Shown here piece by piece: positions 4,360 to 32,000 of a stretch of 32,000 nt of DNA. Source of the stretch: an uncultured Eubacteriales bacterium (lineage in GTDB: Bacteria > Bacillota > Clostridia > TANB77 > RGIG9151); assembly GCA_964631135.1 (NCBI GenBank), contig CAZVVZ010000002.1, positions 3,333 to 35,332 of the forward strand, given 5' to 3'. The position numbers and the translations under genes are program-made. Numbering within the stretch: the stretch's first letter is position 1; every line of letters starts with the position of its first letter. The notes below the pieces were generated by a model. The model was not told where the DNA came from. It searched no databases and saw only the letters and a list, made by a program, of their open reading frames with translations.

Positions 4360-5256
4360 CTACATTGTTGCTCCCCTATCCACTACTTCTATTCCGTTTT
4401 TGCCTAATAGAATAATCTTTTCAAAAACGTCAAATTTAAGCAGTTCTCTCATCTTGTTACTTTTATATAAGTCCTCTACTTTATCTCCGTGAGCAGTAGC
4501 TAAAATTTTTACCCCGGAATTAAGTGCATATTCTATAGCCTCTGCATCATCATCTGTACCTATTTCGTCTGTTGCAATAAAATTAGGCTTCATAGAACGT
4601 ACCATCATCTTTATCCCGTCTGCCTTAACAACTCTGTCCATAATATCAGTCCTAAGTCCAACATCATTTTGAGGAATACCCAAAAAGCATCCTGCAACTT
4701 CCGACCTTTCATCTATTAAACTCACATTATATCCGCTATCGCTTATCTGTCTCACTAAATCTCTAAGTAATGTAGTTTTTCCAAGCCCCGGTGGTGAAAT
4801 TATCAATGTATTTACAAACTTTCCCTTTACTTTAATTTTTGTAATAATATTATCTGCAACACCCTTTATCTCTCTTGCGACTCTAAAATTTAATCCGGAA
4901 ATATCTTTTATAGAGTATATCTTTCCATCTTTATATAGTGGCTTACCGGATATTCCAACTCTGTGGCCTCCGCATATGGTAATAAATCCGTTTGAAATTT
5001 CTTCAGAAAAAGCATAAACGGAATTTTCACAAATGTTCTCAAAAATTCTTGCTATTTCTTCTTTCGTAACTATACATTTTTTACCATCTTTCTCAACAAC
5101 ATATTCTTTTTCCCTGCCTTCTAAAATAGCAGGTCTATTTACCCTAAGTCTTATTTCACAAATATCTTCTAATTCAATATTTTCATTTGAAAGTATACTA
5201 TTTCTAAGTTCCATAGGAAAATATTTTAATATTTCTTCTTTTATCCTATAAATCAT
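4360..5256 (-). CDS. SpoIIIAA-like / ycf45-like AAA ATPase, with no spoIIIAB-AH genes adjacent
   Basis: 298 aa. Walker A is ISPPGLGKTTLLRDLVRQIS and Walker B-like is FIATDEIGTDDDAEAI. Length and motif layout match stage III sporulation protein AA. Confidence 0.7.
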   Translation of the reverse strand: MIYRIKEEILKYFPMELRNSILSNENIELEDICEIRLRVNRPAILEGREKEYVVEKDGKKCIVTKEEIARIFENICENSVYAFSEEISNGFITICGGHRVGISGKPLYKDGKIYSIKDISGLNFRVAREIKGVADNIITKIKVKGKFVNTLIISPPGLGKTTLLRDLVRQISDSGYNVSLIDERSEVAGCFLGIPQNDVGLRTDIMDRVVKADGIKMMVRSMKPNFIATDEIGTDDDAEAIEYALNSGVKILATAHGDKVEDLYKSNKMRELLKFDVFEKIILLGKNGIEVVDRGATM

Positions 5257-5335
5257 ATTCCCCCCAAGTAATATTAAGCCCTTAAATCAATTTACGTTTT
5301 TCCCTTTTTCCGCTAAATCCAACAACTTTCCCTAT

Positions 5336-5374
5336 AAAATTAAAAAACTTGTAACATCTGTTACAAGTTTTTTA
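5336..5374 (-). terminator. intrinsic terminator downstream of rpmF
   Basis: The minus-strand RNA reads AAAAAACUUGUAAC-AGAU-GUUACAAGUUUUUU followed by AAUUUUAU. The hairpin begins a few nt after the rpmF stop codon. Confidence 0.8.
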
Positions 5375-5376
5375 AC

Positions 5377-5562
5377 TTATTTATTCTCTTCTACTTTAAT
5401 AACTTCTTTTCCATTATAGTATCCACAATTTTTGCAAACCTTGTGAGATTCAACAGCCTCATGACACTTAGGACATTCAGTTATATTTTTTGCTTCTAAT
5501 TTCCAAGTAGATCTTCTTAAATGTGTTCTTTCTTTAGACCATCTTCTTTTTGGTTGAGCCAT
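5377..5562 (-). CDS. rpmF: 50S ribosomal protein L32
   Basis: MAQPKRRWSKERTHLRRSTWKL... with the CPKC...CKNCG zinc ribbon. I take the ATG at 5562 as the start because AGGAGG lies 8 nt upstream. The track's GTG extension to 5571 overlaps that RBS. Confidence 0.95.
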   Translation of the reverse strand: MAQPKRRWSKERTHLRRSTWKLEAKNITECPKCHEAVESHKVCKNCGYYNGKEVIKVEENK

Positions 5563-5639
5563 CTTACACACCTCCTAAAAAGCCATTTTTACATCGCTCA
5601 TATGTAAATTTTGAATTTATCGTAATATCAACAACAGAG

Positions 5640-5669
5640 ATTATACTATAGTTTGTACACATTTGTCAA
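5640..5669 (-). promoter_or_regulatory. strong sigma-A promoter for rpmF
   Basis: The minus strand reads TTGACA (5669..5664), an 18-nt spacer, then TATAAT (5645..5640). Both hexamers match the consensus perfectly. The leader is about 70 nt. Confidence 0.7.
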
Positions 5670-5690
5670 TACTTTCAGTAAATATTCCAT

Positions 5691-5785
5691 GCTGCCGTTA
5701 CTAGTCAGAGTATATGTCGCTGGTCAGAGTGCATGAAATAAGATATATGTTTTATCGGAACTCAAGATTTGCGACGAAAGACTTT
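5691..5785 (+). repeat. intergenic palindromic-element family, copy A (half copy: left end plus arm X only)
   Basis: GCTGCCGTTACTAGTCAGAG-TATATGTCGCTGG-TCAGAGTGCATGAAATAAGATATAT, followed by arm X GTTTTATCGGAACTCAAGATTTGCGACGAAAGACTTT (5749..5785). The copy ends where the loop would start, 11 nt before the nrnA stop codon. Confidence 0.85.
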
Positions 5786-5796
5786 AAAAACTTAGT

Positions 5797-6768
5797 TTAA
5801 ATGATTTTTGAAAAAGCTTCTATTAGTTGCTGTTTCGCTTCCTCGCCGGATTCTGTATTAACTCTGCAACCGGCTGCGAATTTATGTCCGCCCCCATTGA
5901 ATTCGGAAGCAACCCCTGAAACATCTATTTTTCCGTTGGATCTTATACTTATTTTCTGAATGTCTTTAAACGGTTTAATAAAAATACCCACTTCGACACC
6001 TTTTATATATCTTGCATAATCAACTATTCCATCTAATTCACTAGGCTCCAAGTTAAATTTCTCAACATCTTCTTTTTTTGCCATAAGAATAGCCAATTTT
6101 CCGTCTAAAAATACTTCAACATTCTGTAATAGCCTTCCCATAAAAATAATCCTATTAAGACTACTCTCTGAGAACATATGATAAGATATATCAGAAACAT
6201 TTATACCATATTCCATTAGTTGACTTGCAATCTCAAAAGTCCTTTTTGAAGTATTACTGTGGCTAAAATTTCCTGTATCCGATGATATAGCACAATATAA
6301 AGCTGTTGCGATTTCAGTGTCGATCTCTATATTCATAGATTTTAATAAATCAAATATAATCTCACCTGTAGCCGCTGCATCCGGCCTTATATAATTCTCG
6401 TCCGCAAACTTGTTGTTTGTAAAATGATGATCAAGGCAAGCAGTAGTTTTTGCATTAACAAATAAATCTTTGGCTTCTCCCATTCTATCTAAATCACCAC
6501 AGTCTAAAGCAATACATAAATCATACTCTTTTTTTAAATCTGCAACATCAAAAGTTTTTATTTCTTTACCTATAGACTTCAACAAAAATTCGCAATTTGA
6601 AGGTACTTTTTCTATTATACCTTCTACACTTTTACCATATTTAATCAGTGCCTTAAATAGTCCTATAATGCTTCCTACCGCATCACCATCAGGATTTTCA
6701 TGCACTAATAAGACAATACTTTTAGCAATATTTATTTTCTCGATAATAGAAGTAAAATTATCTTGCAT
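5797..6768 (-). CDS. nrnA: DHH-family phosphoesterase, NrnA-type oligoribonuclease/pAp phosphatase
   Basis: 323 aa with the DHH motifs HENPDGDAVGS and LDHHF, and the DHHA1 motif GGGH near the C-terminus. It sits in the conserved position after rbfA. Confidence 0.85.
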   Translation of the reverse strand: MQDNFTSIIEKINIAKSIVLLVHENPDGDAVGSIIGLFKALIKYGKSVEGIIEKVPSNCEFLLKSIGKEIKTFDVADLKKEYDLCIALDCGDLDRMGEAKDLFVNAKTTACLDHHFTNNKFADENYIRPDAAATGEIIFDLLKSMNIEIDTEIATALYCAISSDTGNFSHSNTSKRTFEIASQLMEYGINVSDISYHMFSESSLNRIIFMGRLLQNVEVFLDGKLAILMAKKEDVEKFNLEPSELDGIVDYARYIKGVEVGIFIKPFKDIQKISIRSNGKIDVSGVASEFNGGGHKFAAGCRVNTESGEEAKQQLIEAFSKII

Positions 6769-6780
6769 AGTCTAGTCTCC

Positions 6781-7110
6781 TTACATAATTTCCTTTATAA
6801 CCTTATCAATATGGGCTCCATATTCCAAAGAATCATCAATTATAAACTGTAATTCAGGCAATATTCTAATCTGAATTCTGTTACCGAGCTCTTTTCTCAT
6901 ATAACCTGCTCCACTTTTTATACCCTCTAATACTTCGGCTTTGTCTGCTCCCATTATGCTTACATAAATCTTACAAAATTTTAAATCCTTTGTAAGCATT
7001 ATCTTAGTAATACTAATCAAACCTTTTACTCTCGGGTCTTTCAATTCATTTTGAATCATTTCACTAATAACTTTTTTTATTTCTTCTGCAATTCTATCTG
7101 TTCTATCCAT
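6781..7110 (-). CDS. rbfA: ribosome-binding factor A
   Basis: 109 aa beginning MDRTDRIAEEIKKVISEMIQNELKDPRV. It lies immediately downstream of infB. Confidence 0.9.
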   Translation of the reverse strand: MDRTDRIAEEIKKVISEMIQNELKDPRVKGLISITKIMLTKDLKFCKIYVSIMGADKAEVLEGIKSGAGYMRKELGNRIQIRILPELQFIIDDSLEYGAHIDKVIKEIM

Positions 7111-7136
7111 AACAATCCCTTTCTTAAAAGCAACTA

Positions 7137-7173
7137 TTTATTTTGCGGTAAACTAATATCACCGCAAAATAAA
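7137..7173. other. 13-bp hairpin between infB and rbfA
   Basis: TTTATTTTGCGGT, an 11-nt loop, then ACCGCAAAATAAA. The T-run (7174..7179) is on the plus-strand side only, so on the transcribed minus strand no U-tract follows the hairpin. Confidence 0.4.
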
Positions 7174-7190
7174 TTTTTTAGTATATCCGG

Positions 7191-10163
7191 TTATGCTTTA
7201 ATTTCTTCCATAGCATATCCTTCAATAACATCTCCCACCTTAATGTCGTTATACTTTTCCAGTCCAATACCACACTCATATCCTTCATTAACTTCTTTTG
7301 CATCATCTTTTTCTCTCTTAAGAGAAGAAATCTTACCTTCAAACACAACGATGCCCTCTCGTACTAATCTTACATCAGAATTTCTTAGAATCTTGCCATC
7401 AGTAACATAAGAACCTGCAATAGTTCCGACACTGGAAATTTTAAATATCTGTCTTACCTCAGCATGACCGGTTATAACTTCCTTAAACTTAGGTGCAAGC
7501 ATTCCTTTCATTGCAGCGGTAATATCCTCAATAGCATTGTATATTATACTATATAATCTAATGTCTACACCTTCTCGTTCTGCAACAGCTTTAGCTGTAA
7601 CTTCAGGTCTTACATTAAATCCGATTATAATTGCATTGGATACCTGAGATAACATTACATCAGATTCAGTAATAGCACCAACAGCACCATGAATAACCTT
7701 AACTTTCACTTCTTCGTTAGAAAGCTTTTCTAAACTCTGTTTTACGGCTTCAACTGACCCTTGAACATCTGCTTTTATAATAAGATTTAGCTCTTTTACT
7801 TCACCTGTTGAAATCTTGTCAAACAAATCGTCTAATGTTACTCTTGAGCTTGCTCTTAATGTATCCTCTCTCTTCTTCAGTTTTCTCTTTTCAACCAACT
7901 GTTTTGCAAGTTTTTCATCTTGAACCACATAGAAAATGTCACCGGATTCAGGCACTTCAGGTAAACCTGTAATCTCAACAGGAATTGAAGGACCTGCTTT
8001 CTTTATTCTTCTGCCTCTTGAATCTGTCATCGCACGAATATGTCCAACAACATTACCGGCAACAACAGTATCTCCCACGTTTACAGTACCACGTTGAACA
8101 AGCAAAGTCGCAATAGGACCTTTACCTTTATCAAGTTTAGCCTCAATAATAGTCCCCTTAGCTTGACGGTTAGGATCTGCCTTTAATTCAAGCACATCAG
8201 CAACTAAAGTAACAGTTTCCAGCAATTCAGTTATGCCTATTCTCTTTTTCGCGGAAACAGGAACACAAATTGCATCTCCGCCCCATTCTTCAGGCACAAC
8301 CCCATAATTCATAAGTTCTTGTTTTATTTTTTCCGGGTTTGCAGCTTCCTTATCTATCTTATTTATAGCAACAATTATTGAAACCCCTGCAGCCTTAGCA
8401 TGGTTTATAGCTTCAATAGTCTGCGGCATAATACCGTCATCTGCTGCAACAACTAATATTGCGATATCCGTAACCTGAGCACCTCTTGCACGCATTGAAG
8501 TAAATGCTTCATGTCCCGGTGTATCTAAGAATGTAATATCTTTTCCATTGATATTTACAGTAGATGCACCTATATGCTGTGTAATTCCGCCGGCCTCAGT
8601 ATCAATAACGTGGCTTTCACGAATAGCATCAAGTAAAGATGTTTTGCCGTGGTCAACATGCCCCATAACAACTACTATCGGCGGCCTTGGCTGTAAATTC
8701 TCTTGAATGTCCGGAGCATCATCAAACAATATATCTTCTGCTTTAACAACTACTTCTTTCTCAATCTTTATTCCATATTCATCCGCCATTATAGCCGCTG
8801 TATCATAATCAATTTCGTGATTAACTGTTGCCATAACTCCGTAAGTCAAAAGCTTTTTAATAACATCAGCTGATGTTTTCTTCAACTTCTCCGCTAATTC
8901 TTTTACTGTTATGCTCTCGCCAACAGTAATACTAAACGGCAACTGCTTTGGCTGTTCAAAATGCCTTGGTTCTTCTTTCTTCTTTTTACCGCCACTCTTG
9001 TTTCTTCTATCTAAATCATAATAATTCATCAATACTGAATCATCGTTATTTAATAGTTCATTTACAGAATGGCCTGCTCTTAGTTCTTTTAAATGCTCTT
9101 TATTAAAATCTCCAATATGTGCATTGCTCTTAGGCCCTTTTGTCGGTCTTCTTTCCTGATTGTCATTATTCTGAGGCTTTTGTCTAAATTGCCTACCTGG
9201 CTCTTTGGTAACGTTTTCAACAACCGGTGAATCTTTAAAAGCTTGTTTTAATTGGCTTTCCATACCGCCTTGTTGAGATCTGTTATTTTGTCTGTTAAAT
9301 TGAGGCTTATTTCCTTGAAATTTATTATTACCATTATTACTTTTTTTATTTTGCCAGTTCCCTTGAGGGCGATTGCTGTTTGCTCCCTGTCGATTATTAA
9401 ACTGACTATTATTTGGGCTTTTTGATTGATTATTTCTATTATTTTGTTGGTTATTATTTCTATTATTTTGTGAAAAAGAGGCTTTTTCGTTTTTAGCTTC
9501 CGTCACTAATTTTTTCACCTCGGTTTTAGGCTTCTCTTCTTTTATTTCTTCAGTTTTGCTTACTTCATCAGCCTTTGGTTTTTCTTCCGCAGTCTTCTCT
9601 TCTGCAGTTTTTTCTTCTACAATTTCTTCCTTTATAGGCTTTTCATCTACCTTAGCTGGTACTTCAACAGTCGTCTTTTTTTCAGGTTCCTCTAATTTTT
9701 CTACCTTTTCCGGCTCTTCCTTAGGAGCGGTCTTAGGCTTAAATAAGTCCATTATGCTTGGAATTGGGGTATTTTTCTTTTCGATTTGAGCTTCGCTTCT
9801 TCTAAACTGTTCAGGATTAGCAGTTTTTCTAGGTTTCAAATCATAATCAAAATTAGAATGGGTCTCTTTCTTCTCCTCAGTAATATCCTCTCTAACTTGA
9901 ATAATCTCTCTTCTAATTATTCTTGGCTCATCTTTTTTCTTCTCATTTTTTTTGGTTTGTTGATTTTTTGACATTTGTTTACTATCACTTCCGCCTTTGG
10001 TCTTAGCCTCGTTTAGTTTTTCTTTGATTTTCTTTAAATCCTCATCTTCTATTACATTAAGATGGCTCTTTACTTCAATTCCCCATTCTTGAAGTTTCAT
10101 TAAAAAATCCTTATTACTCATTCCTACTTTTCTTGCTATTTCATAAACCTTAACTTTACCCAA
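7191..10163 (-). CDS. infB: translation initiation factor IF-2 (990 aa, expanded low-complexity N-terminus)
   Basis: G-domain motifs [22 protein letters not shown] and NKID, with conserved C-terminal domains. The start is TTG at 10163 with GGAGG 8 nt upstream, and it overlaps the ylxQ stop by 8 nt. Confidence 0.95.
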
Positions 10164-12300: not shown

Positions 12301-12321
12301 AATTACCTCCTCATTACAAAC

Positions 12322-12347
12322 GAAAGAGTGGGAAAACCCACTCTTTC
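12322..12347 (-). promoter_or_regulatory. leader hairpin / candidate attenuator upstream of rimP-nusA
   Basis: The minus-strand RNA reads GAAAGAGUGGG-UUUU-CCCACUCUUUC (an 11-bp GC-containing stem) followed by GUUUGUAAUG, an interrupted U-tract, and then the GGAGG RBS of rimP. It lies downstream of the predicted promoter at 12373..12401. Confidence 0.5.
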
Positions 12348-12372
12348 AGCAACGTCTATATCAAGCATTATC

Positions 12373-12401: not shown

Positions 12402-12429
12402 GTATTTTTTCAGAAAACTGCATTACAGG

Positions 12430-12598
12430 GTTACTGTTCAGACTACCTGCTGCTGGTCAGAGTACATGAAATAAGATATATGTTTTAAAAGGAACGAATA
12501 TTTGCCGAAAGACTTCCCGTATTTTTTTAAAGTCTTTCGTCGCAAATCCTGAGTTCCAATAAAACATATATCTTATTTCATGTACTCTGAACAGTAAC
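12430..12598 (-). mobile_element. intergenic palindromic-element family, copy B (full length, inverted relative to C and E), MITE-like
   Basis: The terminal inverted repeats are GTTACTGTTCAGAC (12430..12443) and CTCTGAACAGTAAC (12585..12598). TTACAGG abuts both ends (12423..12429 and 12599..12605). A perfect 31-bp outer stem pairs 12457..12487 with 12560..12590. Arm Y is at 12482..12515 and arm X, reverse-complemented, is at 12529..12565. Confidence 0.8.
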
Positions 12599-12647
12599 TT
12601 ACAGGTCCCCAGCCAACGGCAGCAACTCATCAAGTCACTGTTGAAAC

Positions 12648-13967
12648 TTACTCGCTTACTTCTACATCAATATATACTATATCCCCTGTATTAAACTTAA
12701 CCTTTATCGATGTATAGCCTGCATTTTTTCCTGTTATCTTTACTTTGCCATTACTTGTTAATGTTGTCTTATCTAACTTTATGTATGAATTATTATATGT
12801 AAGTGTTGCACTTGTCGCATCAAACTCGTCTAAATCAATATATACATATTCATACTCATCTTCCTCAATTTCTACTTCATCATAATTATCTCTGTAATCA
12901 TCATCGTCATCAATTTCTATATCTATATATACCGTATCTCCGGAATCATATTTAATCTTTACTGTTGTATCTCCTTCTTTTTTAGCAGTTATTGTTAAAT
13001 ACCCGTCACTTGTAAATTTAGTTTTAGATACTTTCACATAATTACTGTCATATGTAATTTTCGCTTCATCTGCATCATAATCGTCTAAATCAATATATAC
13101 TTTATGAGTATCCCCTACGTCCATGCTTACTTCTTCTTCATCATCGTCATCATCATCATCAATCTCTATATCTATATATACCGTATCTCCGGAATCATAT
13201 TTAATCTTTACTGTTGTATCTCCTTCTTTTTTAGCAGTTATTGTTAAATACCCGTCACTTGTAAATTTAGTTTTAGATACTTTCACATAATTACTGTCAT
13301 ATGTAATTTTCGCTTCATCTGCATCATAATCGTCTAAATCAATATATACTTTATATGTATCTCCGGTTTCCATGCTTACTTCATCTTCATACTCATCATC
13401 GTCTGTAACTTCTACATATAGTTTTTCAACATCACCCGTATTATATGTAATCTTTATCGTTGCCTCTCCTTCTTTTGAGCCTGTTATTTTTAAGTCACCC
13501 GATGAGGTAAATTTTGTTTTACTTACTTTCACATATGAATTTGAACCTGTAACTGTTGCACTTCTTGCACTATATCTTGCTAAGCTTACATAGTAAGTTT
13601 CACTTTCACCTTTTTCTAGTTCAATATCTTCTTCTCTTGTTTCTGTATAATAATTATTGCTACTACTGTTATAACTGCTGTTGTAATTATTATTATAATT
13701 ATTATAATTGTTAATATAAATTGCATTATTATTAAATGTAACTGTAGAACCCAAAGCTGTTCCAAGCTCGTTCAACGGCAAATATGTTCTCCCGTTATAA
13801 TTTAGTACCGGAGAAGTTGAAGCATAATAGCTTCCGTTTAAGTAAATAGGATAAGAACTAAAATACACATCTCCCGTAACCACTGAGGAAGCAATACTAA
13901 CTCCGCATGTTACTATAATTCCGGCTACTACTCCCATAAAAATACTTTTTAAATCAAATTTTTTCAT
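12648..13967 (-). CDS. membrane-anchored surface protein: copper-amine-oxidase-N-like stalk domain plus four Ig-like (Big_2-like) repeats joined by poly-acidic linkers
   Basis: 439 aa with an N-terminal TM helix (IFMGVVAGIIVTCGVSIASSVV). The segment YLNGSYYASTSPVLNYNGRTYLPLNELGTALGSTVTF resembles Cu_amine_oxidN1. There are four ~80-aa repeats of the form ...YVKVSKTKFTSDGYLTITAKKEGDTTVKIKY..GD..YIDIEI separated by D/E runs. An AAGGAGG RBS is present. Confidence 0.7.
   Translation of the reverse strand: MKKFDLKSIFMGVVAGIIVTCGVSIASSVVTGDVYFSSYPIYLNGSYYASTSPVLNYNGRTYLPLNELGTALGSTVTFNNNAIYINNYNNYNNNYNSSYNSSSNNYYTETREEDIELEKGESETYYVSLARYSARSATVTGSNSYVKVSKTKFTSSGDLKITGSKEGEATIKITYNTGDVEKLYVEVTDDDEYEDEVSMETGDTYKVYIDLDDYDADEAKITYDSNYVKVSKTKFTSDGYLTITAKKEGDTTVKIKYDSGDTVYIDIEIDDDDDDDEEEVSMDVGDTHKVYIDLDDYDADEAKITYDSNYVKVSKTKFTSDGYLTITAKKEGDTTVKIKYDSGDTVYIDIEIDDDDDYRDNYDEVEIEEDEYEYVYIDLDEFDATSATLTYNNSYIKLDKTTLTSNGKVKITGKNAGYTSIKVKFNTGDIVYIDVEVSE
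12917..13354. repeat. in-frame tandem duplication, period 249 bp (83 aa), inside the surface-protein gene
   Basis: By eye, 12917..13105 is identical base for base to 13166..13354 (189 bp). The flanks of each unit have diverged. Confidence 0.9.
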
Positions 13968-15067: not shown

Positions 15068-15202
15068 ATTCTCACCCTACTTATAAATACTATATTTTTA
15101 GTTTGTTCCCTTTTGAAATCATATTCTTATAATTTCTTTTTATGATATACTAACTTTGTGTATTATTTCATTTTGGCTTTTACAAATTTTCGTTGAAGCC
15201 CT

Positions 15203-15355
15203 GTTTGAGCAGAGCTTAGCGGTCAGACTACTGTAAAAAAATAATATATATGTTTTATCAGGACTTAGGATTTGCAACGAAAGACTTTGAAGAATACGAG
15301 AAGCCTTTCTGCAAATATTCATTCCTTTTAGAACATATATATTATTTTTTTACAG
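15203..15355 (+). repeat. intergenic palindromic-element family, copy C (full hairpin)
   Basis: A degenerate left end (GTTTGAGCAGAG-CTTAGCGG-TCAGAC) is followed by a perfect 24-bp outer stem pairing 15231..15254 with 15332..15355. Arm X is at 15252..15288 and arm Y, reverse-complemented, is at 15301..15334. The copy ends 22 nt after the upstream gene's stop codon. Confidence 0.85.
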
Positions 15356-15377: not shown

Positions 15378-16388
15378 TTAATCTTGTGTATCAACATCAA
15401 CATCAATGTCATCATCAGGTTCCGTATCATCATTTGGAGCTAATAAATCACTTTCAGCTATTTCCATTATATATTTTCCTCTTTCTTCGCTATAATTAAA
15501 TGAAATAAGTGATTTTTCCAAGGTCTCATCTAGCTGACGTAAATCTGTAGTATATAAAGGAGTGCAATCTTTTAACACTATCCTGTTTTTAACAAGAAGT
15601 TTAAATATCTCAACCAAGTGAGTATCATCTTCTCCAAGTAGCACCAACTGTGGCGGATTATCAAATCCGGAATCACGCATATTATAATACTCATAAAATT
15701 CAGCATATAGCTGCATTTTAGTAACAAACTTTTCTTCCCAACCAGGTTCACGTCTTACAGCCTCAAAAACAAAGTCAACTGTTTTTCCTTCTTTGTTTAA
15801 ACTAACTACCCCGCCGGAAACCTTAAACCTTATGTTCTGTCTTTTCGCCATAAGTACAGGATCAACAACATAATTTTTAAAATACTTAGCCTTCATCATA
15901 TAAGCGATTATAACCTGATTCCCTGCCAGCCTTTTCTTTATTAAATGCACCGGCTTTGTATTATTTGTAGGTACCCATTCTGTTCTTATTTCTCTTGAAT
16001 TTAATAAATATTTTCCTGATTTATCTAAGCAATAAATTCTATAAATTCCATTACCCTCGTCACTCTTAAAATAATATTTTGCAATAGCTCTTGCTTTTAT
16101 CAAATTTTCAAGCCTTGCATTAACTTTATTTTGGTCTTTTATCTCAATTCCCTTCATCTGAAGTAACTGATAAATTTGCCTTGACGTAATGAACTCAAAC
16201 TTACTAATAAGCTCTAGCATTTCAAAATGCAATTCATTAACATACCCCATATCTACCATAAAAACAGCCTGATTTACGTTAGAATACCCGGTCTTGCCAT
16301 CGTAAACTTTCTCTTCATTCGGACGCATCGCAAAAGGTGATTTCGTCGCTTTTACTTCTTTATCATTAATCATAATCATAACCTCCAT
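15378..16388 (-). CDS. hypothetical protein with an N-terminal winged-helix-like segment, resembling the replication-relaxation family (PF13814-like), and an acidic C-terminal tail
   Basis: 336-aa ORF. The GGAGG inside the first codons suggests that the true start is the ATG at 16373 (MINDKEV...). The segment LELISKFEFITSRQIYQLLQ...ARLENLIKARAIAKYYF...IYRIYCLDKSGKYLL follows the wHTH pattern I associate with Replic_Relax proteins. The C-terminus is NDDTEPDDDIDVDVDTQD. The family assignment is from memory and unverified. Confidence 0.45.
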   Translation of the reverse strand: MEVMIMINDKEVKATKSPFAMRPNEEKVYDGKTGYSNVNQAVFMVDMGYVNELHFEMLELISKFEFITSRQIYQLLQMKGIEIKDQNKVNARLENLIKARAIAKYYFKSDEGNGIYRIYCLDKSGKYLLNSREIRTEWVPTNNTKPVHLIKKRLAGNQVIIAYMMKAKYFKNYVVDPVLMAKRQNIRFKVSGGVVSLNKEGKTVDFVFEAVRREPGWEEKFVTKMQLYAEFYEYYNMRDSGFDNPPQLVLLGEDDTHLVEIFKLLVKNRIVLKDCTPLYTTDLRQLDETLEKSLISFNYSEERGKYIMEIAESDLLAPNDDTEPDDDIDVDVDTQD

Positions 16389-16440: not shown

Positions 16441-17265
16441 TTAGCCAACAATAACTAATTTAATTTTTTTCTTCTCCGGTATAATTTTCTTTATAAACAC
16501 ACTTACTCTTTGACCATATTCAATTCCGGGCTTATGATCAGCAAGTCCCACCAAATTAGGCCTTAATTCTACAAATATACCATTTTTCTCACGAGCTCTT
16601 GCAATACCAATAACAGTAGTGCCTTCCTTAAAATCCTTTATATTATCTTCCCACGTTCCAAGTAATTCTTTATGGGTAAGCACAATTTTTCCGGTTGTTC
16701 TGTCAAAATTCTTTACCATAACTTTTATCTTATCACCAATTTTAAATCTCTCATTAGGGTGCATAATTCTTGCAACAGATATATCTTCTATATGAAGTAG
16801 CCCGGTAACACCTCCGCCAATATCTACGAAAGCACCGTACTGTTCCATATTTCTCACTATTCCGCTTAAAACCATACCTTCTTTTAAGTTTTTATACATC
16901 CATTCTTTAACTTCTATTTCAACAGCTTTTCTGGATAAAATAACTTCTACATTACCATTCTCATCACGTTTAATTTCTTTAATTTTAAACTGAACTCTTT
17001 TATTAACTTTAGTAATAGATGCAACAGGTCTTGGTAAACCGTCAGCTTCAACAGTTGCGCTAACTTCTGTTCTTGGCACAACTCCTTTTATTCCGTCTAA
17101 ATCAACATAAAGATTGAATTCCGGGTCAGCCATAGTAACTAAGCCTTCTAAAGTTTCATTTTTTTCTTTTGCTTCAGTTAAAAATGCTATCTTTTTTTCC
17201 TGTTCTTCATCATATCCGTTGCCGACTAAGTCCCAGCCCTCAGGCATAAATTTTTGTTCGTCCAT
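16441..17265 (-). CDS. S1 RNA-binding domain protein (multiple S1 repeats)
   Basis: 274 aa. GMVLSGIVRNMEQYGAFVDIGGGVTGLLHIEDIS is a canonical S1 motif. Further S1-like repeats lie on both sides of it. Confidence 0.8.
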   Translation of the reverse strand: MDEQKFMPEGWDLVGNGYDEEQEKKIAFLTEAKEKNETLEGLVTMADPEFNLYVDLDGIKGVVPRTEVSATVEADGLPRPVASITKVNKRVQFKIKEIKRDENGNVEVILSRKAVEIEVKEWMYKNLKEGMVLSGIVRNMEQYGAFVDIGGGVTGLLHIEDISVARIMHPNERFKIGDKIKVMVKNFDRTTGKIVLTHKELLGTWEDNIKDFKEGTTVIGIARAREKNGIFVELRPNLVGLADHKPGIEYGQRVSVFIKKIIPEKKKIKLVIVG

Positions 17266-19903: not shown

Positions 19904-21232
19904 CTATAACCTTATCTTTGTTAAACAGCATATAAAAAAGCCATCACACCCATGCATATTAGGCAATAACGATAACATTCCGTCTTTAAGACCATTCTCC
20001 CACTCTTTAGGAATTAGAGTTGCATCAGTAATAACCTTAAAATTACTGTTTTTATTTAAAAACCATCTTATGGTGTCTTGATTCTCCTTAAAAATATTAG
20101 TACAAGTACTATAAACTAATATACCGCCCACCTTTAAATACCGAGCAGCATTTTCTAATATTTTCTTTTGAACTTCATTTATTTTTTCAATATCCTCTTC
20201 TGCAATATTAAACTTAATATCCGGCTTTTTCCTAATAACTCCTAGCCCCGAACAAGGAACATCTGCAATAATTCTATCAAACTTATTAACAAACTCTTCA
20301 CTGAATTCTGTAGCATCTTTTATTTTAGTCTTTATAGAATAAATTCCAAGCCTTTTTGCTGTTTCTTCTATAAGCTTTACCCTTTTAGGGTATAAATCCA
20401 TAGCGATTATATTAGCATTATCATTGACAAGCTGAGCAACGTGTGTAGTTTTTCCTCCCGGTGCTGCACATATATCTAATATTTCTTGACCTTCTTCAGG
20501 CTTTAATAAATGTGCCACAAGTGCCGGTGCCTCATCTTGTAACGTTATTAAGCCATTTTTAAACTCCGTAGAATTTATTATGCTTTTTACGTCAGTAGTA
20601 TAAAAAATGTCATTCAATTTACCATAATTACATTCTGTAAACTTCTTTAATATTTCTTCTCTTGAAATTTTTAATGTGTTAACCCTAACACAATCAAAAT
20701 CCACCTTCTCATTAGCCTTTAATAAAGTTTTAGTATTCTCTTTTCCAAACTGCTTTATCCATACATCAATAATCCATCTAGGATAAGAATAATACACAGA
20801 TAAGTACTCTTCTACATTATCTATTCCTTTAAAAAACTCATTTTTATCAGTTCTAGATGCATTTCTTAGCATAGCATTAACAAAATTAGCAGAAGAAACA
20901 TGTCCATACTTTTTCGCAAGTTTAACTGCTTCATTGCATGTCGCAGCCGCAGGAATCTTATCTAAATAATATATCTGAAATATTCCCAGCCTCAAAATAT
21001 TAAGAATAGGATTCGCTATTTTATTAAATCTTACCTTAGAAGATTTTTTTATAATATAGTCTATCGCTAATTTATTTGCAATAACACCATAGACGAGCTG
21101 AGTAACAAACGTTTTATCCACGTCGCTTAGCTCTGACTTATTAAGTTCACTATTCAATAATATATTAGAAAATGCCTTGTCATTCTGGGACTTCATAAGA
21201 ATGTGCAAAGCAAGCTCACGAGCATTTTGCAT
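19904..21232 (-). CDS. rsmB: 16S rRNA (cytosine967-C5)-methyltransferase
   Basis: 442 aa with an N-terminal NusB-like domain. The SAM motif is DICAAPGGKTTH, and the catalytic motifs are DVPCSGLGVIRKKPD and YSTCT. Confidence 0.9.
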   Translation of the reverse strand: MQNARELALHILMKSQNDKAFSNILLNSELNKSELSDVDKTFVTQLVYGVIANKLAIDYIIKKSSKVRFNKIANPILNILRLGIFQIYYLDKIPAAATCNEAVKLAKKYGHVSSANFVNAMLRNASRTDKNEFFKGIDNVEEYLSVYYSYPRWIIDVWIKQFGKENTKTLLKANEKVDFDCVRVNTLKISREEILKKFTECNYGKLNDIFYTTDVKSIINSTEFKNGLITLQDEAPALVAHLLKPEEGQEILDICAAPGGKTTHVAQLVNDNANIIAMDLYPKRVKLIEETAKRLGIYSIKTKIKDATEFSEEFVNKFDRIIADVPCSGLGVIRKKPDIKFNIAEEDIEKINEVQKKILENAARYLKVGGILVYSTCTNIFKENQDTIRWFLNKNSNFKVITDATLIPKEWENGLKDGMLSLLPNMHGCDGFFICCLTKIRL

Positions 21233-22459: not shown

Positions 22460-22540
22460 TATCAGACATAAATAAAATATATGTTTTATTTATGTCTGAG
22501 TAGCAGCCTAATCAGGCTCTTAAAAATAATATGTATGTTT
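22460..22540. repeat. intergenic palindromic-element family, copy D (minimal/degenerate: outer stem only, plus a second truncated stem fragment)
   Basis: TCAGACATAAATAAAA-TATATG-TTTTATTTATGTCTGA (22460..22497) is a 16-bp stem carrying the family's TCAGA and AATAAAATATATGTTTTA features, but both inner arms are missing. GTAGCAGCC follows, and then AAAATAATATGTATGTTTTA (22521..22540) runs into the upstream stop codon. Confidence 0.55.
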
Positions 22541-24193: not shown

Positions 24194-24358
24194 CACCTGC
24201 CAGCCAAAGTACTAGTATATGAAAATAATATATATGTTTTATCGGGACTCAGGATTTGCGACGAAAAACTTTAAAAAATGTGGGAAGTCTTTCGGCAAAT
24301 ATTCGTTCCTTTTAAAACATATATATTATTTTCATATACTAGTGCTCTGACTAATAAC
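24194..24358 (+). repeat. intergenic palindromic-element family, copy E (full hairpin)
   Basis: A perfect 31-bp outer stem pairs 24211..24241 with 24313..24343. Arm X is at 24236..24272 and arm Y, reverse-complemented, is at 24285..24318. The right terminal module is CTCTGACTAATAAC (ending at 24358) and the left flank is CACCTGCCAGCCAA. The copy ends 12 nt after the deoD stop codon. Confidence 0.85.
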
Positions 24359-25078: not shown

Positions 25079-25227
25079 AAATATCAATCCTTTCTTTTTT
25101 ATTTTCATATAATGTAAATTTTTTCTACAATAAATCAAAAATTATATCGTAATTTTCTGCTTTATTCTTTAATAGCATTAGTGTAGTTGAAATTATTTGT
25201 GCACATTAGAAAGTTATTTTCTGTCAC

Positions 25228-25301
25228 TATTTATAATAAAAATAATATATGCTTTATCAAAACTCAGGATTTGCGGTGAAAGACTTTAATTATTTTCATG
25301 T
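25228..25301 (+). repeat. intergenic palindromic-element family, copy F (internally deleted: arm X joined directly to the right outer-stem remnant)
   Basis: AAAAATAATATAT is followed by arm X GCTTTATCAAAACTCAGGATTTGCGGTGAAAGACTTT (25242..25278), and then directly by AATTATTTTCATGTAGTAGTGCC. That last stretch resembles the right end of copy E (ATTATTTTCATATACTAGTGC). Confidence 0.7.
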
Positions 25302-25316
25302 AGTAGTGCCTAAATG

Positions 25317-31307: not shown

Positions 31308-32000
31308 TCATTCCAAACTATTCTCTCTAATAATGTCTTTTATAACTTCTCCGGAAATAATCAATCCCGCAACTGACGGAACAAAAGATATACTTCCGGG
31401 TACTTGCTTTTTAGCTGTTTCTGATTGGCATGTATAATCTTCTGAGCACTCATATTCCGTTATTTCGCTAAATTTTATCGGCTCTTCTTTTGAATATACA
31501 ACCTTTAATTTTTTTATTCCCCTTGCCCTTAATTCCTTTCGCATCACTTTCGCTAAAGGGCATACACTCGTTTTATAAATATCCGTTATTTCGAATTTTG
31601 TAGGATCTAGCTTATTTCCTGTTCCCATACTTGAAATTATAGGTATATTTAGTCTATTCGCTCTCACTACCAGTTCAATTTTTGCCGTAACAGTATCTAC
31701 CGCATCTACAACATAATCTACTGTTCCGTCCAATATTTCTTTACTGCCCGGCATAAAAAACTCTTGATGTATTTCTACTTTAGCATTTGGATTTATATCT
31801 AAGATTCTTTCTTTTGCAACCTCCACTTTATACTTTCCAACCGTTTTATGAGTTGCAATTATTTGCCTATTTAAATTTGTTAAGCAAACTTTATCATTAT
31901 CTACCAATATAAAATTCCATACTCCGGCTCTCGCCAATCCTTCTACTACGAAAGACCCAACTCCTCCAATTCCAAATATCGCCACTTTGGCTTTATTTAA
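31308..32000 (-). CDS. tcdA: tRNA threonylcarbamoyladenosine dehydratase (ThiF/E1-like), C-terminal part; the 5' end lies beyond the window
   Basis: The frame stays open to the window edge (...LNKAKVAIFGIGGVGSFVVEGLARAGV). It has the Rossmann motif GIGGVGS plus DNDKVCLTNLNRQ. The track's GTG start at 31985 is an artefact of truncation. Confidence 0.8.
   Translation of the reverse strand, partial: LNKAKVAIFGIGGVGSFVVEGLARAGVWNFILVDNDKVCLTNLNRQIIATHKTVGKYKVEVAKERILDINPNAKVEIHQEFFMPGSKEILDGTVDYVVDAVDTVTAKIELVVRANRLNIPIISSMGTGNKLDPTKFEITDIYKTSVCPLAKVMRKELRARGIKKLKVVYSKEEPIKFSEITEYECSEDYTCQSETAKKQVPGSISFVPSVAGLIISGEVIKDIIRENSLE

Follow-up and report, generated by a model that had tools for sequence, protein, structure and literature searches.

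Correia elements of Neisseria, ERIC, RUP and the bcr1-type MITEs are intergenic repeats of 100-200 bp, with terminal repeats and long hairpins, that reach hundreds of copies, often lie beside promoters and stop codons, and commonly occur as truncated or mosaic variants. The target duplication is TA for Correia elements and 5 bp long for bcr1, and the Y1 transposases of IS200/IS605 and the RAYTs make none. The small repeats of Streptococcus pneumoniae, namely BOX, RUP and SPRITE, cluster in intergenic DNA and insert into each other (PMC10969869). Target duplications of 8 bp are produced by the IS6 family (PMC7986276), whose terminal repeat of ~14 bp has the consensus GGTTCTGTTGCAAA, with a GG tip, G7, cTGTt and caaa as its features; most of the long IS6-like insertion sequences of Clostridia lack GG at their start (PMC6807381).

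The DNA considered here (the window) is a 32-kb stretch from an uncultured Clostridia lineage, with all its genes on the minus strand. Among the repeats that it contains, copy B follows the stop codon of a repeat-rich Cu_amine_oxidN1-like gene and precedes the promoter of the rimP-nusA-infB operon. A sequence-only reading had taken copy B for a MITE, and the present analysis agrees with it: the element is short and non-coding, it has terminal repeats and a duplication, its relatives are many, and the orthologous site is found both occupied and empty. Copy B (12430-12598) very probably belongs to an undescribed family of non-autonomous DNA transposons (MITEs) with 14-bp ends and an 8-bp duplication, which for B is TTACAGGT. 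The family is new, but the kind of element is already known.

Structure of copy B and its flanking duplication

Copy B is 169 bp long and forms a single long imperfect palindrome between direct repeats. Its left (outer) terminal inverted repeat, GTTACTGTTCAGAC, occupies positions 12430-12443 of the plus strand, to which all features described below are referred, and matches in 13 of 14 positions the reverse complement (GTTACTGTTCAGAG) of the right terminal repeat, CTCTGAACAGTAAC, at 12585-12598, exactly as first noted. The family consensus of this repeat, drawn from the window and from the related loci L076, L078 and L089, is GTTACnnnTCAGAC. At the left end, the end motif recurs as an inner (subterminal) repeat, GCTGCTGGTCAGAG, at 12449-12462, 19 nt inward of the outer one, and comparable two-repeat ends are present in copy A (5697-5729) and on both sides of copy G2 (in L097). 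From its sequence, this inner repeat may represent a second transposase-binding site. When the end motif GTTACTnnTCAGAG was searched for with up to 2 mismatches, 9 occurrences were found in the window versus 1.95 expected, and it appears twice, 19 nt apart, in both A and B.

Inward of these repeats lies an outer stem, whose left arm (12463-12487) pairs with a right arm at 12560-12584, located by an inverted-repeat search and by folding; the 35-nt arms are 97% complementary and are seen in the RNA as well as in the DNA folds. The stem encloses a core hairpin (12488-12559), made of the reverse complement of the Y arm (12488-12515), a loop (12516-12529) and the reverse complement of the X arm (12530-12559). 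This core is inverted with respect to copies C and E, as had been noticed from the letters alone: copy B aligns to copy E with 90.6% identity in reverse and 71.8% in forward orientation. The right terminal repeat is directly joined to the outer stem: the 19-nt spacer and the inner repeat, present at the left end of B and in copy G2, are missing here; judging from the sequence, this would be best explained by a 19-nt deletion between two TCAGAG repeats.

The whole element is predicted to fold into one long hairpin, both as RNA (-79 kcal/mol, z = -12.3) and as DNA (-51.7 kcal/mol, z = -14.1). No credible coding capacity was found in copy B, since its only open reading frames, of 20-58 residues, cross its borders and are unsupported. 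A search of copy B against Rfam 15 gave 0 matches at the gathering thresholds, and a sensitive search (E <= 1) retrieved only generic plant-miRNA hairpin models, which scored far under their thresholds.

The direct repeat TTACAGG abuts both termini of the element, at 12423-12429 and at 12599-12605. This heptamer is not rare in the window (8 occurrences versus 3.0 expected); the probability of a 7-nt identity at two positions fixed beforehand is ~1e-4. The existence of a duplication at both ends was therefore upheld, but not its proposed length of 7 nt. In the strain contig L031, read on the gene strand, the junctions are ACCTGTAA|GTTACTG...CAGTAAC|ACCTGTAA, an identity of 8/8 that corresponds to TTACAGGT on the window strand. 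In the window strain one T is absent, compared with L031, at the left junction: the right copy of the duplication (TTACAGGT, 12599-12606) is complete, whereas the left one (TTACAGG, 12423-12429) retains 7 of the original 8 nt and lacks the element-proximal T.

Duplications of differing sequence around other copies, the check that the sequence-only reading had proposed, do exist, although they too are of 8 bp rather than 7. In the related locus L078, a 153-bp element at 26-178 reads CATTAAGA|GTTACAATTCAGAC...GTCTGACCTGTAAC|CATTAAGA, and one of 2365 bp at 4904-7268 reads AAGAGGTA|GTTACAGGTCAGAC...GTCTGATCTATAAC|AAGAGGTA, in both cases with a perfect 8-bp duplication as read from the sequence; around a third one, located upstream of rimP in L078, the flanking repeat matches at 6/8. 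When non-redundant related loci, 175 kb in all, were scanned strictly, 3 of 9 candidate end pairs had perfect 8/8 flanks of differing sequence, for a chance expectation of about 1e-4 to 1e-5 per pair. These three cases make a duplication of 8 bp likelier than one of 7 bp plus a chance base. The duplications that support that of copy B come from the relative L078 and from the strain variant L031, not from a second copy in the same genome with both ends intact.

The rimP-upstream site in relatives

An exact look-up of RimP retrieved six metagenome contigs of the same species, all of which carry copy B at the same site with few base differences; two of the six break within it. Where the window has GTTACTGTTCAGAGTACATG, at the right terminal repeat of B and the bases next to it, one of the contigs (L029) has GTTACTAGTCAGAGTATATG, exactly as copy A begins; these three clustered sequence differences suggest a gene conversion between copies. 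More distant relatives were collected through a search for NusA homologues, which returned an uncultured series from 95% to 81% identical. The closest named match, of 87% identity, was a metagenome-assembled genome labelled "Clostridia bacterium", and some sample names suggest an origin in ruminant-gut metagenomes.

In three collinear sister lineages (L088, L084 and L083, with NusA identities of 95%, 92% and 91%), the gene order is conserved, with the Cu_amine_oxidN1-like gene followed by rimP, and the site of B is empty: 10-12 nt separate the stop codon from the A-rich stretch that precedes the -35 box, and no element is present. Similarly, the site of copy A, between the DHH gene and rpmF, is empty in L088 and L084, and holds in L089 a half element of the type found in L076. 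The restoration of a single TTACAGG, as the sequence-only reading had anticipated for an empty site, was not observed in L088, L084 or L083, because these lineages also lack the DNA that surrounds B. Indeed, the window exceeds the empty sites by ~235 nt, not by the 169 + 8 expected from the element and its duplication, as B is enclosed by ~66 nt of species-specific DNA (12607-12647 and about 12405-12422), of which no further copy was found in 175 kb of related fetched loci. The part of this DNA that separates B from the stop codon of the upstream gene (12607-12647), absent from the empty sites, holds AACGGCAGC (12615-12623) and, beside the stop codon, a degenerate end-like motif, GTCACTGTTGAAAC (12634-12647).

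This additional DNA could be taken to mean that the true unit is larger or nested, in which case the sequence GCTGCC...GTTGGCTGGGGAC...CTGTAA would be a decayed outer repeat and TTACAGG(T) would be internal to the element instead of a duplication. The segment AACGGCAGC is, as reported earlier, the reverse complement of GCTGCCGTT, which flanks copy A (5691-5699); it lies 19 nt beyond the right terminal repeat of B, that is, at the spacing of the outer and inner repeats of copy A, and intact copies do carry two repeats per end. Besides, the ~66 nt around B are extra with respect to the empty sites. However, GTTGGCTGGGGAC agrees with the end motif in only about 4 of 14 positions, the 66-nt stretch is not repeated anywhere in the 175 kb of related DNA, and a nested unit would turn both the 13/14 terminal repeat and the 8/8 repeat at the edges in L031 into coincidences, the direct repeat alone having a probability of ~1e-5. 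Such a larger unit is thus considered highly improbable. The caution that the boundary of B might be mosaic was justified, as intact copies have outer and inner repeats (G2), B has lost 19 nt, and copies A, C, E and F are truncated.

Other lineages carry different elements at the rimP-upstream site. L076 and L077 (95%) have a different, near-perfect palindrome of ~190 bp that starts with GTTACTGTTGTAACAAGTCAGAC and has 70-nt arms, 96% complementary; no clean direct repeat borders the L076 element, whose palindrome continues into the flanks. In L089, L091 and L092 (92%) there is another element, ending in ...GTCTGTACAGTAAC, within which the contigs break, and in L078 (87%) an element with a core of REP pairs that ends in ...GTTTGACCAGTAAC. 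The elements of L076, L089 and L078 stand roughly 22-33 nt from the -35 box, and their differing offsets and flanks identify them as independent insertions into a favoured region. The DNA immediately preceding the promoter of rimP-nusA-infB, an essential operon, has been a repeated target of the family.

That promoter, as read from the sequence, consists of TTGCAT, a 17-nt spacer and TATATT, with B lying upstream of it. The conserved hairpin of the rimP leader (12321-12348) is undisturbed by the insertion. This hairpin (minus strand), situated between the promoter and the start codon, has a GC-rich stem of 12 bp followed by a T-rich tail (TTTGT), reading UGAAAGAGUGGGUUUUCCCACUCUUUCG UUUGU, and it is conserved with few changes in all the relatives, even at 81% NusA identity; from these sequence features it is probably an attenuator of the operon. 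As for the upstream gene (12648-13967, minus strand), four tandem 249-nt repeats with 60-95% identity were observed at 12643-13641, and their number varies between strains, given that the product has 439 residues here and 356 in L026 and L029, a difference of one repeat unit.

With a stop codon on one side and the next promoter on the other, and with an extremely stable hairpin, copy B might instead be regarded as a regulatory element of the host, that is, a terminator, an insulator or an RNA-stability element of the upstream gene that is kept by selection, the more so because, in the relatives with an empty site, no terminator separates the upstream gene from the rimP promoter. Yet B is missing at the orthologous site in three sister lineages, and a terminator scan made no call at B, whose stem is followed by CCUGUAAUGCAG; the lack of a U tract means that it is not a canonical intrinsic terminator. 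Moreover, copies of the family are found in both core orientations relative to transcription, and terminators do not feature terminal repeats plus a duplication. A role in the host as the reason for the presence of B is consequently scarcely probable. For B as a MITE, the only plausible side effect would be the formation of a stable hairpin in read-through transcripts of the upstream gene, for which, from its sequence, it could possibly act as a roadblock or a processing site.

Copies, ends and cores of the family

The X-arm core GATTTGCRRYGAAARACTTT was found 5 times in the window versus 0.12 expected, always between genes, and two more copies of the X/Y core lie in the next 4.3 kb to the left (L097). 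Copy A (5697-5790) is a half element with the X arm only, which ends at the loop; its end reads GTTACTAGTCAGAG, TATAT and GTCGCTGGTCAGAG, followed by the outer stem and the X arm. In copy C (15201-15355), a full X/Y hairpin follows a left end with two degenerate repeats, and the right terminal repeat is missing; copy E (24195-24358) likewise contains a full X/Y hairpin, with a degenerate left inner repeat, and it retains the right terminal repeat CTCTGACTAATAAC. In copy F (25225-25308) the outer stems and the X arm are kept and the Y arm is deleted, and a mini derivative, D (22466-22499), is a CAGAC ... GTCTG hairpin of outer-stem-like sequence alone, without the X/Y core. Neither tRNAs nor Rfam families were found in the window. 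Directly upstream of copy C, a 336-residue open reading frame (15378-16388, minus strand) showed a weak match to Pfam Replic_Relax (27.9 bits versus a cutoff of 25.3), unexpected among housekeeping genes, and the look-up returned no record for the protein encoded at 31308-31985.

Past the left edge of the window, at 15650-16010 of L097, two tandem copies, G1 and G2, follow an SBP_bac_5 gene. On either side of copy G2, a 5-nt spacer separates an outer from an inner repeat, the contig stopping within the second outer repeat, and this architecture indicates that the intact element is symmetric at its ends. A flip of the core of B within ends of fixed polarity, contemplated as an explanation for its orientation, became unnecessary once G2 showed two repeats on both sides. 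The inner repeat of the ACCTGC type stands beside the X arm in copy E and beside the Y arm in B and G2, which implies some shuffling between copies. Canonical ends are absent from copy G1, in spite of its X/Y core and long outer stems, and from an X/Y-core element upstream of rimP in L094. It was also observed that G1 is flanked by a direct repeat, CTGTTGTT(A), with a 3-nt offset; the outer terminal repeat of G2 may have been its insertion site. In a second assembly (L098), the G1/G2 pair appears merged into one copy. With a density of ~1 copy per 5 kb of sampled sequence in this uncultured Clostridia lineage, the family breaks metagenome assemblies, and several metagenome contigs do break inside copies.

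Across species, the ends are shared (the 14-bp consensus is that of the window, L076, L078 and L089) and the cores differ: an X/Y hairpin in the species of the window, a second palindrome in L076, and GTAG-type REP pairs in L078. Conserved ends with divergent cores are what would be expected if a transposase recognises the ends alone. REP hairpin pairs were located in L078 at 59-143, 4930-5050, 7083-7237, 9250-9330 and 16456-16598, and in L082 at 441-602, an example being TGTAGGGACACAATTTATTGTGTCC ... GGACACAATGAATTGTGTCCCTACA; the elements that enclose the L078 pairs end in GTTAC...TCAGAC. In addition, just upstream of leuS, L078 has at 20400-20700 six tandem 47-nt units, each made of the REP hairpin GGACAGCATGAATGCTGTCCGTAC and a spacer.

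The presence of classic GTAG-headed REP pairs and of a tandem REP array in relatives raises the alternative that copy B is a palindrome of the REPIN/BIME type, spread by a RAYT (an IS200/IS605-like Y1 transposase) or by recombination, and that its flanking repeat is incidental. B is indeed a long imperfect palindrome, its family is very abundant between genes, and terminal repeats are missing from some of the copies with an X/Y core (L094, G1). Against this, three different perfect 8-bp duplications flank elements that have the same ends, and the GTAG head is absent from B. Furthermore, the L078 REP pairs (those at the 5' end, in 4904-7268, upstream of rimP and downstream of the DHH gene, as assessed by eye) are found inside units bounded by terminal repeats, so that, leaving the 20400-20700 array outside this comparison, the ends and not the REPs mark the mobile unit. 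This alternative appears very unlikely. A related candidate, insertion next to TTAC by an IS608-like element (with a Y1 transposase), was discarded in view of the three elements with 8-bp duplications of unrelated sequence.

For copy B as a MITE, the following course of events would account for its structure. Working in trans, a transposase of the DDE type would attach to the terminal repeats and, probably, to the inner repeats located 19 nt inward as well, and would cut the target with a stagger of 8 bp, the repair of the gaps giving rise to the duplication. Later losses would have removed 19 nt from one end of B and a single nucleotide from one copy of the duplication, and today B is most likely inert selfish DNA.

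The 2365-bp element of L078 (4904-7268) was seen to contain a tandem duplication of a module that comprises REP pairs and an open reading frame of ~220 residues. The two paralogous products (219 and 224 residues) had no match in Pfam, NCBIfam or PHROG; they were rejected as transposases, as they bear no resemblance to one, and they may be transposon cargo. A broader proposal, which we consider doubtful, is that the 14-bp ends (GTTACnnnTCAGAC) plus the inner repeats constitute a chassis for an undescribed transposase, with payloads that are swappable across sister species: the X/Y hairpin, the second palindrome, the GTAG-type REP pairs, or the 2.4-kb unit with two paralogues and its 8-bp duplication. 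If this were true, REP-like palindromes would spread inside MITEs mobilised by a DDE transposase, as well as via RAYTs.

Candidate transposase and comparison with known systems

Conserved ends with species-specific cores provide a defined target for finding the transposase. No transposase gene was found in any fetched locus. Scans of a genome and a metagenome collection with GATTTGCRRYGAAARACTTT gave 25 and 44 single hits, respectively, in unrelated phyla and flanks and in about the number expected by chance, which implies that the source lineage is absent from the collections scanned. Viral contigs scanned with the L078-type end yielded 2 chance matches, in GC-rich DNA, and blastn searches of plasmids with copy B, the L078 MITE and the L076 palindrome returned no matches; an autonomous element with the ends of the family was thus not found in the searched viral and plasmid DNA or in the fetched loci.

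Considering the sequence of the ends, an IS6/IS26-like transposase would be the closest fit, which we offer as a weak guess and a lead only, without assigning the family to IS6. The MITEs of this group (MITEBth2 and MITEHarch3 in ISfinder, with IS26, IS257 and IS1216 as parents) resemble copy B in their 8-bp duplication and in a terminal repeat of ~14 bp. The end of B, GTTACTGTTCAGAG, agrees with the IS6 consensus in 8 of 14 positions, including G1, G7 and CTGTT (positions 5-9), and does not have the GG tip. The L078-type end, in turn, coincides in 18 of 26 positions with that of IS257, whose sequence was verified in 1085 plasmids. Unlike in IS6, CTGTT is variable in the family of B, as the L078 ends are GTTACAGGTCAGAC and GTTACAATTCAGAC. 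To our knowledge, the IS6 family does not feature inner repeats at 19 nt from the tip. The fetched loci contained no IS6-type transposase beside family ends, and when plasmids were queried by tblastn with the IS257 transposase, the matches listed were ordinary short IS6 members, which saturated the listing, and not the long clostridial ones.

Several of the systems mentioned at the beginning share features with copy B. The REP, BIME and REPIN sequences mobilised by RAYTs are likewise abundant extragenic palindromes, and REP pairs of the GTAG type form the core of the L078 members; REPINs, however, do not display the signature of terminal repeats plus duplication, and B has an 8-bp duplication and no GTAG head. 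The clusters of BOX, RUP and SPRITE recall the tandem G1/G2 pair and the compound DNA around B, but BOX and SPRITE are not bounded by terminal repeats and duplications as the family of B is, and both the organism and the sequences differ. Finally, in comparison with Correia, ERIC, RUP and bcr1, the sequence of the family is unrelated, its duplication is of 8 bp, and sister species share its 14-bp ends but not its cores, which are wholly different.
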